From a virus (taxonomy: Duplodnaviria; Heunggongvirae; Uroviricota; Caudoviricetes): DNA of 38,579 bases. Below are positions 32,403 through 37,998 of this stretch, piece after piece. Under the pieces are notes generated by a model, which saw nothing but the letters and a program-made list of their open reading frames with translations, did not search any database and was not told the origin of the DNA. Position 1 is the first letter of the stretch. Every line of letters begins with the position of its first letter. Made by a program: the position numbers and the translations under genes. The stretch lies in the IMG/VR virus record IMGVR_UViG_2563367002_000001; one strand, written 5' to 3'.

Positions 32403-35400
32403 ATGGGTAAAGGCAGCAGTAAGGGGCATACCCCGCGCGAAGCGAAGGACAACCTGAAATCATCCCAGATGCTGAGCGTGATAGACGCCATCAGCGAAGG
32501 GCCGGTTGAAGGTCCGGTGGATGGATTAAAAAGCGTGCTGCTGAACAGTACGCCGGTGCTGGACAGTGAGGGGAATACCAATATATTCGGCGTCACGGTG
32601 GTGTTCCGGGCCGGTGAGCAGGAGCAGACACCGCCGGAGGGATTTGAATCCTCCGGCTCCGAGACGGTGCTCGGTACAGAAGTGAAATATGACACGCCGA
32701 TCACCCGGACCATCACGTCGGCAAACATTGACCGTCTGCGTTTTACTTTCGGCGTGCAGGCACTGGTGGAAACCACCTCAAAGGGGGACAGGAATCCATC
32801 GGAAGTCCGCCTGCTGGTTCAGATTCAACGTAACGGTGGCTGGGTGACGGAAAAAGACATCACCATTAAGGGCAAAACCACGTCGCAGTATCTGGCCTCG
32901 GTGGTGGTGGATAACCTGCCGCCGCGCCCGTTTAATATCCGGATGCGCAGGATGACGCCGGACAGCACCACAGACCAGTTGCAGAACAAAACGCTCTGGT
33001 CGTCATACACCGAAATCATCGATGTGAAACAGTGCTACCCGAACACGGCACTGGTCGGCGTACAGGTGGACTCGGAGCAGTTCGGCAGCCAGCAGGTGAG
33101 CCGTAATTATCATCTTCGCGGGCGCATTCTGCAGGTGCCGTCGAACTATAACCCGCAGACGCGGCAATACAGCGGTATCTGGGACGGAACGTTTAAGCCA
33201 GCATACAGCAACAACATGGCCTGGTGTCTGTGGGATATGCTGACCCATCCGCGCTACGGCATGGGGAAACGTCTTGGTGCGGCAGATGTGGATAAATGGG
33301 CGCTGTATGTCATCGGCCAGAATTGCGACCAGTCAGTGCCGGACGGCTTTGGCGGCACGGAGCCGCGCATCACCTGTAATGCGTACCTGACCACACAGCG
33401 CAAGGCGTGGGATGTGCTCAGTGATTTTTGCTCGGCGATGCGCTGTATGCCGGTATGGAACGGGCAGACGCTGACATTCGTGCAGGACCGACCGTCGGAT
33501 AAGGTGTGGACCTATAACCGCAGTAATGTGGTGATGCCGGATGATGGCGCGCCGTTCCGCTACAGCTTCAGCGCCCTGAAAGACCGCCATAATGCCGTTG
33601 AGGTGAACTGGATTGACCCGGATAACGGCTGGGAGACGGCGACAGAGCTTGTGGAGGACACGCAGGCCATTGCCCGTTACGGTCGTAACGTCACGAAGAT
33701 GGATGCCTTTGGCTGTACCAGCCGGGGGCAGGCACACCGCGCCGGGCTGTGGCTGATTAAAACGGAGCTGCTGGAAACGCAGACCGTGGACTTCAGCGTG
33801 GGTGCAGAAGGGCTTCGCCATGTACCGGGCGATGTCATTGAAATCTGTGATGATGACTATGCGGGGATCAGCATCGGCGGGCGCGTGCTGGCGGTGAACA
33901 ACCAGACGCGGACACTGACGCTCGACCGTGAAATCACGCTGCCATCCTCCGGCACCACGCTGATAAGCCTGGCTGACGGACAGGGGAATCCGGTCAGCGT
34001 GGAGGTCCAGTCCGTCACCGACGGCGTGAAGGTAAAAGTGAGCCGTGTTCCTGACGGCGTTGCAGAATACAGCGTGTGGGGGCTGAAGTTGCCAACGTTG
34101 CGCCAGCGCCTGTTCCGCTGTGTGAGTATCCGTGAGAACGATGACGGCACGTATGCCATCACTGCCGTGCAGCATGTACCGGAAAAAGAGGCCATCGTGG
34201 ATAACGGGGCGCACTTTGACGGCGACCAGAGCGGCACGGTGAATGGTGTCACGCCGCCAGCGGTGCAGCACCTGACTGCCGAAGTCACCGCAGACAGCGG
34301 GGAATATCAGGTGCTGGCGCGCTGGGACACGCCGAAGGTGGTGAAGGGGGTGAGCTTTATGCTTCGCCTGACCGTGGCAGCGGATGACGGCAGTGAGCGG
34401 CTGGTCAGCACGGCCCGGACGACGGAAACCACATACCGCTTCAGGCAACTGGCGCTGGGGAACTACAGGCTGACAGTCCGGGCGGTAAATGCGTGGGGGC
34501 AGCAGGGCGATCCGGCATCGGTATCGTTCCGGATTGCCGCACCGGCAGCGCCGTCGCAGATTGAGCTGACACCGGGGTATTTTCAGATAACCGCCACGCC
34601 GCATCTTGCGGTTTATGATCCGACGGTACAGTTTGAGTTCTGGTTCTCGGAAAAGCGGATTGCGGATATCAGGCAGGTTGAAACCACAGCACGCTATCTT
34701 GGCACGGCGCTGTACTGGATAGCCGCCAGTATCAATATCAAACCGGGCCATGATTATTATTTTTACATCCGCAGTGTGAACACCGTTGGCAAATCGGCAT
34801 TTGTGGAGGCTGTTGGCCAGCCGAGTGATGATGCATCCGGCTATCTGAATTTTTTCAAAGGAGAGATAGGGAAAACCCATCTGGCTCAGGAGTTGTGGAC
34901 GCAGATTGATAACGGTCAGCTTGCGCCTGACCTGGCTGAAATCAGGACGTCCATTACGGGTGTCAGCAATGAAATCACGCAGACCGTCAATAAGAAACTG
35001 GAAGACCAGAGTGCAGCGATCCAGCAGATACAGAAGGTTCAGGTTGATACAAATAATAACCTGAACAGCATGTGGGCTGTGAAGCTGCAGCAGATGCAGG
35101 ACGGACGCCTTTATATCGCGGGTATTGGTGCCGGTGTTGAGAATACTCCTGACGGTATGCAGAGTCAGGTGCTGCTGGCGGCGGACAGGATTGCGATGAT
35201 TAATCCTGCGAATGGCAACACAAAGCCGATGTTTGTTGGGCAGGGCGATCAGATATTCATGAACGAAGTGTTCCTGAAATATCTGACGGCTCCCACCATT
35301 ACCAGCGGTGGCAATCCCCCAACGTTTTCACTGACACCTGATGGTCGACTTTCTGCGAAAAATGCGGATATCAGCGGTAACGTGAACGCGAACTCCGGGA

Positions 35401-35937: not shown

Positions 35938-37998
35938 ATGGCAGTACAGATTTCAGGCGTGCTGAAAGACGGTGCAGGAAAACCGATACAGAACTGCACC
36001 ATTCAGCTCAAAGCAAAACGTAACAGCACCACGGTTGTGGTGAACACGGTGGCCTCAGAAAATCCGGATGAAGCCGGACGTTACAGCATGGATGTCGAGT
36101 ATGGCCAGTACAGCGTTATCCTGCTGGTTGAAGGTTTTCCGCCTTCACATGCCGGGGCCATCACCGTGTATGAGGATTCTAAGCCGGGGACATTGAATGA
36201 TTTTCTGGGCGCTGCAACAGAAGATGATGTTCGTCCGGAGGCACTGTATCGTTTTGAAAAGATGGTGGAAGAGGTGGCACGCAACGCTGAAGCCGCCTCT
36301 CAGAGCGCAGCGGCAGCAAAGAAATCAGAAACAGCAGCGGCATCGTCCAGGAATGCGGCGAAAACATCAGAGACGAATGCAGGTAACAGCGCGAAAGCGG
36401 CAGCTTCTTCAAAAACAGCCGCACAAAACGCAGCAACAGCGGCAGAACGTTCAGAGACAAATGCCCGTGCGTCAGAAGAAGCCTCCGCAGACAGTGAAGA
36501 GGCTTCCCGCCGTAATGCAGAGTCAGCCGCTGAAAATGCCGGAGTCGCCACCACAAAAGCGCGGGAGGCCGCAGCAGACGCAACAAAGGCCGGGCAGAAA
36601 AAGGATGAGGCTCTGTCGGCAGCGACACGGGCTGAAAAGGCGGCAGACCGCGCAGAAGTCGCAGCGGAAGTGACTGCAGAGCCCTATGCGAATATAGTGC
36701 CGCCGCTGCCTGATGTGTGGATACCGTTTAACGATTCACTGGATATGATTGCGGGTTTTTCTCCGGGCTATAAAAAAATAGCTATTGGTGACGATGTGGT
36801 TCAGGTCGCCAGTGATAAACAGGTTAATTTCAGTCGCGCATCAACGGCAACATATATCAACAAATCTGGCGAACTGAAAACGGCGGAAATTAATGAGCCG
36901 CGATTTGAGTGTGATGGCCTGCTTATTGAGGGACAAAGAACGAACTACATGCTCAATTCGGAAAGTCCAGCCAGCTGGGGGAAGTCATCAAACATGGATG
37001 TGCCCGAAACCGGGACAGATAGTTTTGGTTTTACTTATGGAAAGTTTGTCTGCAACGATTCTCTGGTTGGGCAAACTTCGGCTATTAATATGGCATCAAT
37101 TGCTGCAACAAAGTCAGTTGATGTCTCAGGCGATAACAAGTACGTGACAACCTCATGCCGTTTTAAAACAGAACGACAGGTAAGGTTACGTATACGGTTT
37201 GATAAGTATGATGGTAGTGCAACAACTTTTCTTGGCGATGCGTACATTGATACGCAAACGCTTGAAATTAATATGACAGGTGGGGCTGCCGGCAGAATTA
37301 CGGCACGAGTCAGGAAGGATAAGACCACAGGCTGGATTTTTGCAGAGGCAACGATTCAGGCAATTGATGGTGAGTTAAAAATAGGCTCTCAGATACAGTA
37401 TTCTCCTGAGCGGGGTGGGGCAACAGTATCTGGTGACTATATTTATCTTGCCACCCCACAAGTAGAGAATGGGCCGTGTGTATCATCATTTATTATTTCA
37501 GGAGGCAGCGCAACGACAAGAGCCAGTGATTTGGTTAGTATCCCCACCAGAAATAATCTTTATAAGTTACCATTTACTTTTTTACTTGAGATTCATAAAA
37601 ACTGGGATATTGCACCAAACGCCGCACCCCGCGTGTGGGATATAGCAGCAGCCAATACCGGGCAATCAGCAATTGCAGCAATCAACAGAGGTAGTGGTAA
37701 GTTATATATGAGTCTGTCAAACCCTTCAGGCTTGTATGTTAATAGCGCAGCGACAGATGTATTTGCAGAGAAAACCACATTTGGATGTATTGCAAAAGCT
37801 GATGGTCACTTTCATGTGGTGACAAATGGTAAAGCGGTTAATGAAGTTTATTGTGAATATAATGGTGTGACCGCTGATAAAAATATCCGATTTGGAGGGC
37901 AGACGAATACTGGAGAACGACATCTGTTTGGCCATATTCGCAATTTCCGCATATGGCATAAAGAATTAAATGACAGGCAATTAAAAGAGGTCGTATGA
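35938..37998 (+). CDS. stf: Side tail fibre protein (Stf-like N-terminus with Ala-rich shaft and an unrelated C-terminal domain), about 686 aa
   Basis: N-terminal ~90 aa match lambda Stf (MAVQISGVLKDGAGKPIQNCTIQLKAKRNSTTVVVNTV...), followed by an Ala/Ser-rich repeat region. The C-terminal ~420 aa are not lambda-like and look AT-richer. ATG at 35938 with GGAG 5 nt upstream. Confidence 0.85.
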   Translation: MAVQISGVLKDGAGKPIQNCTIQLKAKRNSTTVVVNTVASENPDEAGRYSMDVEYGQYSVILLVEGFPPSHAGAITVYEDSKPGTLNDFLGAATEDDVRPEALYRFEKMVEEVARNAEAASQSAAAAKKSETAAASSRNAAKTSETNAGNSAKAAASSKTAAQNAATAAERSETNARASEEASADSEEASRRNAESAAENAGVATTKAREAAADATKAGQKKDEALSAATRAEKAADRAEVAAEVTAEPYANIVPPLPDVWIPFNDSLDMIAGFSPGYKKIAIGDDVVQVASDKQVNFSRASTATYINKSGELKTAEINEPRFECDGLLIEGQRTNYMLNSESPASWGKSSNMDVPETGTDSFGFTYGKFVCNDSLVGQTSAINMASIAATKSVDVSGDNKYVTTSCRFKTERQVRLRIRFDKYDGSATTFLGDAYIDTQTLEINMTGGAAGRITARVRKDKTTGWIFAEATIQAIDGELKIGSQIQYSPERGGATVSGDYIYLATPQVENGPCVSSFIISGGSATTRASDLVSIPTRNNLYKLPFTFLLEIHKNWDIAPNAAPRVWDIAAANTGQSAIAAINRGSGKLYMSLSNPSGLYVNSAATDVFAEKTTFGCIAKADGHFHVVTNGKAVNEVYCEYNGVTADKNIRFGGQTNTGERHLFGHIRNFRIWHKELNDRQLKEVV

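Follow-up and report, generated by a model that had tools for sequence, protein, structure and literature searches.

It has long stood in the textbooks that lambdoid and P2-like phages trade the ends of their tail fibres in a mosaic manner. Here we consider the central and side tail fibre genes (J and stf) and their neighbours in a Caudoviricetes sequence, IMG/VR record IMGVR_UViG_2563367002_000001, and call the whole analyzed stretch of 38,579 nucleotides (nt) the window. The closest described system is Escherichia phage 21 (OL657228; Feiss et al. 2022, PMC9119081), in which the matching genes (CPT_21_21 to CPT_21_24) and the site between them carry the labels central tail fiber, terminator, side tail fiber, hypothetical protein and putative membrane protein. 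For phage 21 LamB was reported as the native receptor, as for lambda: the ancestral phage did not lyse lamB-deleted cells until it had evolved, and use of OmpC and later of OmpF was gained via a few mutations in J, the first of which, I1025T, lies shortly before the receptor-binding domain (RBD) and confers OmpC use (bioRxiv 10.1101/2023.04.13.536812 and 10.1101/2024.04.15.589635, both from one laboratory). Structures of lambda J on LamB are available (PDB 8IYK, 8XCG and 8XCJ). In Ur-lambda, gpJ residues 1-807 form the tip complex resolved by cryo-EM and the remainder the protruding central fibre, and Stf residues 1-91 build a dodecameric collar where gpV and gpM meet (PMC12617516). A8, a gpJ C-terminus of natural origin, delivers DNA through OmpC in lamB-deleted cells when grafted onto lambda (PMC11338833, Brödel et al. 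2024). Finally, RcGTA, the gene transfer agent (GTA) of Rhodobacter capsulatus, possesses the head spike fibre Rcc01080 (GhsB), which binds capsular polysaccharide (PMC7296036, PMC10218006).

Compared to these systems, the end of the window agrees almost completely with phage 21. Window positions 34800-38579 match OL657228 over their full length with 99.8% nucleotide identity, the same value being found for phages ev017 and PhiR63_2, 99.7% for PhiR57_1 and 99.1% for mEp460_4F5. Phage 21 has the same terminator, orf92 and orf97 and no lom; its Stf protein is 100% identical, and J residues 800-1158 are identical apart from one terminal Ile-Ser that is missing in the window. The open reading frames (ORFs) at 30326, 31030 and 31671 upstream of J correspond to identical phage 21 genes that bear the annotation of L, K and I homologues. 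In its early half the window resembles PhiR57_1 and ev017 more closely than it does phage 21 and contains IS3-family insertions, therefore the window is a relative with a common tail end and not phage 21 itself. In our view it is likely that the region serves a lambdoid prophage of the phage 21 type as its adsorption apparatus, in which, compared to lambda, three pieces were exchanged independently. Being part of a classic phage, it has already been sequenced and annotated and is ordinary as a finding. The features discussed below are the following, with lengths in amino acids (aa) and with GC3 denoting the GC content of third codon positions.

32403-35879, plus strand: J, tip attachment protein or central tail fibre, 1158 aa
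32403-34817, plus strand: J residues 1-805, lambda-type hub part, about 98% amino acid identity to lambda J, GC 0.586, GC3 0.71
34818-35879, plus strand: J residues 806-1158, exchanged central-fibre shaft and RBD of the phage 21/A8 type, GC 0.491, GC3 0.55
35463-35876, plus strand: J RBD, residues 1021-1158, 81% identical to A8 gpJ and 50% to lambda J
Between J and stf, plus strand: spacer of 58 nt
35898-35927, plus strand: intrinsic-terminator-like hairpin in this spacer, stem at 35898-35917, then a T run
35938-37998, plus strand: stf, 686 aa from ATG (the ORF list begins at an upstream GTG, 35932)
35938-36297, plus strand: stf residues 1-120, lambda-type N-terminal collar or anchor domain
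36298-36693, plus strand: stf residues 121-252, Ala-rich shaft, presumably coiled-coil, GC 0.581
36694-37998, plus strand: stf residues 253-686 (the head), a probable lectin module of the head-spike-fibre type with two predicted beta-sandwich domains, assigned by family and predicted-fold matches
37995-38273, plus strand: orf92, 92 aa, acidic, coupled in translation to stf by a 4-bp ATGA overlap with the stf stop
38286-38579, plus strand: orf97, 97 aa, small membrane protein, ending where the window ends

The side fibre starts in the lambda manner. Stf residues 3-133 match phage_tail_N (PF08400, E = 9.8e-69) and the first 158 residues share 74% identity with lambda Stf; the shaft consists of low-complexity Ala/Ser/Glu repeats, which align loosely to the lambda Stf shaft (53% identity over 107 aa), but with residues 121-252 it is much shorter than that of lambda (residues 102-525; PMC12617516). 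With Stf and Tfa of Ur-lambda the window shares the PF08400 collar, the Ala-rich trimeric shaft and the gene position after J, and presumably also the role of Stf in speeding reversible adsorption. It differs by an unrelated head, the shorter shaft and by orf92, which stands where Tfa stands. The homology to lambda ends at codon 253 (nt 36694), where the head begins with 'VPPLPDVWIPF': after about residue 250 no resemblance to lambda orf-401 or orf-314 was observed by BLASTP (best E against orf-314 = 1.2), and the head is unrelated to the T4-gp37-like, OmpC-binding head of Ur-lambda. The GC content falls from 0.581 in codons 121-252 to 0.435 in codons 253-686 (GC3 0.364), and the best change point of the composition (36690-36730) coincides with this homology junction. 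We rejected the possibility that the shift is a side effect of amino acid content, as GC3 drops too (in stf from 0.45 to 0.36, in J from 0.71 to 0.55) and the change point is the homology junction. An earlier model-generated interpretation of the window, in the following called the sequence-only reading, had described a lambda Stf N-terminus with an Ala-rich shaft, followed by a non-lambda distal domain of about 420 aa that is AT-richer from about 36700, and had named a uniform composition across the genes as the contrary outcome. Its description holds with a distal part of 434 aa from 36694, and the composition is not uniform, with steps at Stf codon 253 and at the J junction. As a separate observation inside stf, the phage 21 record lists a CII-binding-site pattern (ttgynnnnnnttgy) that falls at about 36423-36436 on the minus strand of the window (coordinates transferred from positions 5630-5643 of the phage 21 locus, L001) and is overlapped by a weak minus-strand terminator-like hairpin (36434-36418); this pattern is probably a chance match.

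For the distal module we found a family relationship to head-spike fibres. The NCBIfam profile GTA_spike_fiber (NF048003) matches Stf residues 329-529 with 55.3 bits (cutoff 36) over profile positions 1-181 of 182, and by phmmer the head matches RcGTA Rcc01080 with E = 6.6e-10 and about 24% identity. A search seeded with Rcc01080 gave 869 relatives, which are mostly free-standing metagenome proteins of about 400-420 aa (median 408 aa). These free-standing homologues align end to end with the Stf head; at the N-terminus they are longer by a median of 10.5 residues, and their C-termini coincide with that of Stf. A whole spike-fibre gene was thus fused in frame to the Stf shaft, and the distal 434 aa are a full-length homologue of Rcc01080 and of its metagenomic podovirus-like relatives. 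The inspected contexts of free-standing homologues (three contigs, L008, L009 and L011) are structural gene blocks which look podovirus-like from their gene content, with a T7-type head-tail connector and a major capsid gene in L009 and L011 and an SU10-type adaptor in L008. In L009 a gene of 85 aa lies upstream of the spike-fibre homologue, like the spike base gene in the RcGTA locus (L010), whereas no spike base gene of about 85 aa was found upstream of stf in the window. Rcc01080 docks via an N-terminal Leu-Gly repeat on a pentameric capsid base, while the module in the window is fused to a tail-fibre shaft; RcGTA has an adjacent base-protein gene and no orf92-like partner, and the window has orf92 and no adjacent base gene.

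We modeled the head with AlphaFold2 from a 131-sequence alignment which included the Rcc01080 relatives, and the predicted structure is all-beta with two domains (pLDDT 78.2, pTM 0.80) that classify as a jelly-roll beta-sandwich fold. An earlier model from 18 close relatives (pLDDT 45.6), with which a Foldseek search of the PDB returned nothing at E <= 0.001, was discarded. The present model matches carbohydrate-binding domains of the concanavalin A (ConA)-like type strongly, the best structural matches being non-catalytic ones (AbnA domain 4, CBM40 and lectin-like domains of clostridial toxins), and BFVD yielded tail fibres of virulent coliphages (rolling, EdH4 and NBEco002, 35-50% identity) together with many 'ConA-like' phage proteins. 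The domain and structure searches that the sequence-only reading had proposed for distal Stf thus yielded a GTA_spike_fiber match above cutoff, a predicted ConA-like fold and no lambda match. Because of the fold matches and by analogy with Rcc01080 we infer that the Stf head is probably a lectin for a surface glycan. Several points weigh against this assignment. The fold evidence comes from a model of moderate confidence, whose second domain has pLDDT values of 55-80, and the Pfam match of Laminin_G_3 to Stf residues 562-683 is weak (23.9 bits, gathering cutoff 27.6), with some relatives of the head carrying precomputed PF13385 annotation. PDB 6TB9 was rejected as a template, since only residues 2-10 of Rcc01080 are resolved in it and the homologous part is absent. 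The literature on the Stf head, on phages ev017 and mEp460 and the PhiR series, and on the term 'head spike fiber domain' gave no functional information. Moreover, ConA-like jelly rolls can bind proteins as well.

A related alternative is that the head binds an outer-membrane protein or degrades a glycan instead of being a non-catalytic lectin. The precedent for the former is Ur-lambda Stf, which uses the protein receptor OmpC (PMC12617516), but the head in the window does not resemble lambda Stf's gp37-like one, its top structural matches are non-catalytic carbohydrate-binding domains, and the sole characterized relative in sequence, Rcc01080, binds capsular polysaccharide. A search for a GH16-type motif (ExDxE or ExDxxE) in Stf found none. 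We therefore regard a protein-binding or enzymatic head as unlikely compared to a glycan-binding one.

The head is part of an AT-rich cassette of about 1.9 kb, composed of the Stf head, orf92 and orf97. In a P2-like prophage (L003) the fibre in gpH position (P0087) combines a P2 N-terminus with the same head (86% identical, counted from residue 253), and with identical spacing a 92-aa ORF (90%) and a 97-aa ORF (81%) follow, and then a truncated Caudo_TAP remnant. This P2-type gpH has the same cassette layout from 'VPPLPDVWIPF' on and differs by its Phage_tail_fib N-terminus and a contractile-tail baseplate. The trio also recurs in the more distant lambda-like prophages L005-L007, where the head is 61-72% identical and lom is present. 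Altogether the cassette was found at a coverage of at least 80% in 453 of 5,426 complete E. coli genomes (about 8%), and RefSeq labels its fibre as 'phage head spike fiber domain-containing protein'. With regard to the neighbourhood of the trio, in L006 (6641-8741) and L007 (6606-8706) a homologous stf-orf92-orf96 trio with lom upstream is followed by CDtoxinA, Exo_endo_phos and CDtoxinA genes, a succession that matches cytolethal distending toxin (cdtABC); the cargo adjoining the cassette varies. In phage 21, orf97 is followed by sitDCBA, which lie on the opposite strand, encode an iron/manganese transporter and are absent from the window.

The orf92 gene comes after the fibre gene, overlapping it by 4 bp, in L003/L004, L005, L006/L007, L008 and L009, its divergence tracks that of the head (63-64% identity where the head is 61-72% identical), and in two podovirus-like contigs homologues overlap the stop of spike-fibre-family genes, in one of them with 33% identity. 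No Tfa (Caudo_TAP) was found directly downstream of stf, where neither orf92 nor orf97 has a Pfam match. For orf92 we found no relative in Pfam, NCBIfam or PADLOC and no credible one in the PDB (the best profile match, E = 0.02, is a telomerase protein), Pfam also gave nothing for 20 members of the family, and among 1.84 billion representative proteins only 56 relatives were detected, none of them annotated. In PHROGs both orf92 and orf97 fall into families of unknown function only. In the window orf92 stands in place of the Tfa chaperone gene, and most likely it serves as an assembly factor or tip partner. Against this role, which we infer from the gene neighbourhood only, stands that no orf92-like gene is present in the RcGTA locus or, within the ±4 kb examined, in the podovirus-like L011.

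For orf97 the matching family is PHROG 1443, and the phage 21 annotation gives a signal sequence and two transmembrane domains; searches of Pfam, NCBIfam and PADLOC and a PDB profile search gave nothing credible. In other cassettes its identity is 74-91%. A further homologue with 96% nucleotide identity was observed in E. coli HCM-25C-3 (L012, 3513-3806), in a decayed prophage by bioA-ybhB, where it follows a different 'tail fiber domain' gene of 234 aa without orf92. As orf97 thus occurs without orf92 after another fibre, its link to the head is looser, and from these gene arrangements it behaves as a separable add-on 3' of fibre genes.

A more far-reaching reading joins these observations, and we offer it tentatively as one possibility that has more against it than for it. 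The Stf head and orf92 would be a portable two-gene adhesin unit, which would have come from a capsid head-spike fibre of podovirus-like phages and GTAs and have been grafted onto lambda- and P2-type fibres in E. coli. Here orf92 would be an unrecognized dedicated folding or tip partner that replaces Tfa-type chaperones, and orf97 may protect the lysogen, for example by an exclusion matched to the same surface target.

J is 83% identical to lambda J overall (BLASTP), with a very uneven distribution along the protein. The near-identity in protein and DNA stops at codon ~805 (window ~34815), beyond which the DNA divergence is abrupt and the GC content steps from 0.586 to 0.491. Past this junction the window has a 28-aa insertion after residue ~835, and the identity to lambda amounts to 63% over the shaft (871-1020) and 50% over the RBD (1021-1158). 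The exchange junction coincides with the structural boundary of Ur-lambda gpJ at residue 807. Nevertheless, lambda J and the window J are of the same family and have the same domain order and a homologous RBD. We found the Pfam series FNIII-A_GpJ, Phage-tail_3, Ig_J, Ig_J_second, Phage_Tail_Tip and Ig_GpJ_C in this order, each with E <= 2.6e-31, the last two being located at 872-1000 (E = 2.6e-31) and 1038-1158 (E = 1.7e-36), and the NCBIfam model lambda_TipJ (NF049904) scores 2381 bits (cutoff 1950) over residues 1-1158. The exchanged end of J is thus best described, on these profile matches, as a diverged homologous allele of the TipJ family and not as a foreign domain. The sequence-only reading had taken J to be lambda-like for about 1000 aa with only the last ~150 aa differing. 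This placed the end of the near-identity about 200 residues too late: the RBD does differ, but the exchange comprises the last ~353 aa. Likewise, its question whether the C-terminus is an ordinary lambda allele has a divided answer, since the RBD is only 50% identical to that of lambda and yet clearly homologous. At the very end of J (35865-35879), a tandem repeat of the 6-bp unit ATCAGT is shorter by one copy in the window than in phage 21, so that J ends with ...AGIS here and with ...AGISIS there. In phage 21, ev017, PhiR57_1 and mEp460_4F5 the matched span is six bases longer than the query, which suggests that they carry the longer form, while in PhiR63_2 it is only five bases longer.

The spacer between J and stf agrees with the corresponding statements of the sequence-only reading, namely a good terminator and no lom gene. 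Its hairpin, GGGCGCC-AGAA-ATGGCGCCT, then TTTTTATTT, folds with -22 kcal/mol (z = -4.0), precedes the T run and is the terminator of the phage 21 annotation. It occupies the site of lambda's lom-stf terminator, and TTTGTGGRGTGAATATGGCAGTA after the hairpin is conserved. A tblastn search of the whole window with lambda Lom gave nothing better than E = 1.8. Since homologous stf cassettes coexist with lom in other prophages (L005-L007), the lack of lom here has to be counted as an independent variable.

Which receptor this J allele uses can be approached via phage 21. As the RBD is identical to that of phage 21, the allele most likely docks irreversibly on LamB, by analogy and on the basis of the literature cited above, and at the positions described for phage 21 the window carries I1025 and V1026. 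Among solved structures the nearest relative of the C-terminal part, ahead of lambda J, is the A8 gpJ chimera (PDB 9WCA/9WCB; 9WCA, 'A8 gpJ 713', E = 3e-152), with 88% identity over residues 961-1020, 81% over the RBD and 26 RBD substitutions; A8 uses OmpC and phage 21 LamB. The RBD clade therefore straddles LamB and OmpC use, the allele of the window being, by the same analogy, the LamB-using one. Against this stand the OmpC use of the closest solved RBD relative, the missing terminal Ile-Ser of the window J, and the fact that the tested laboratory stock of phage 21 carries, relative to OL657228, the change G18903A in the first base of J codon 1071, which in our translation is E1071K in the RBD (the codon is GAA in the window and in OL657228). 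One could thus suppose that the window J natively recognizes OmpC or another porin and not LamB, with a primary receptor other than that of lambda, and the low identity of its RBD to lambda's, the higher one to the OmpC-using A8, the single substitution (I1025T) by which phage 21 gains OmpC use and the base difference in the tested stock would all fit. However, both papers report LamB as native receptor in the OL657228 background, the ancestral phage could not lyse lamB-deleted cells before evolving, residues 800-1158 of the window equal OL657228 except for the Ile-Ser, and A8 differs at 26 RBD positions, so that native porin use other than LamB seems quite improbable to us. As phage 21 with the same RBD was reported on LamB, the earlier proposal that the exchange in J alters the primary receptor finds no support. 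Separately, we observed a prophage-borne general porin gene at 11973-13115 on the minus strand (380 aa, Porin_1 E = 2e-151), which is the AT-richest part of the window (GC 0.395) and is annotated OmpD/NmpC/OmpC in related phages; it is of note since OmpC and OmpF use evolves in the J allele of this phage type.

One could also suppose that stf is a relic without function, as it is in laboratory lambda PaPa, and that the mosaic is only a trace of past recombination with no present role in adsorption. This would agree with the dispensability of lambda side fibres for plaque formation (PMC12617516) and with phage 21 infecting rough K-12 via J alone, as far as published experiments show, but is scarcely credible given the intact ORF of 686 codons that is identical to that of phage 21, the purifying selection on all three cassette genes (dN/dS 0.18 for the head compared to the P2-like copy, 0.30 for orf92 and 0.15 for orf97) and the wide occurrence of the cassette in E. 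coli genomes, where it is kept on two different fibre scaffolds.

Outside the tail genes, the window contains two IS3-family copies (3819-5071 and 7912-9164) of 1253 nt with HTH_Tnp_1 and rve ORFs, which are inverted with 99% complementary arms. The 2.84 kb between them contain early genes (Ead/Ea22-like, YqaJ exonuclease). Directly adjoining the second copy is a RecT fragment (7452-7871) to which only the last quarter of the RecT profile aligns, so that recT appears to be interrupted. The first position of the window is exactly where a lambda-type integrase gene ends (1-1143, minus strand), and its last (38579) is exactly where the orf97 stop codon lies.

Taken together, both distal modules are mosaic replacements compared to lambda, with sharp junctions and differing base composition, which bears out the exchange of both that the sequence-only reading had proposed. 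Its further expectation that adsorption specificity probably differs from lambda applies to one of the two fibres. As the Stf head is unrelated to the OmpC-binding head of Ur-lambda, the accessory specificity is very likely different, while the same does not extend to the primary receptor of J. In the adsorption pathway that we propose, J keeps the lambda hub (residues 1-805) with another allele of central fibre and RBD (806-1158), and the collar of Stf would anchor trimeric side fibres with a short Ala-rich coiled-coil shaft round the tail at the gpV-gpM junction. The Stf head, which would have arrived as an AT-rich cassette together with orf92 and orf97, would be the first to make contact, quickly and reversibly, with a carbohydrate of the cell surface (LPS, O-antigen, capsule or a glycan like these), and this contact would raise the odds that J finds its porin. 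J itself would then dock irreversibly on LamB, being close in sequence space to users of OmpC.

For host-range prediction the locus holds a caution: LamB is used by an RBD with only 50% identity to that of lambda, and OmpC by a relative which shares 81% identity with this RBD, and hence the receptor is not readable from percent identity alone. Beyond this, the region provides a modest lead, namely a probable lectin-type Stf head that occurs with a conserved 92-aa partner in about 8% of complete E. coli genomes. Knowing the ligand of this head would aid the design of lambda-based delivery particles, in which Stf heads are swapped on purpose, and the prediction of prophage host range in gut E. 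coli.

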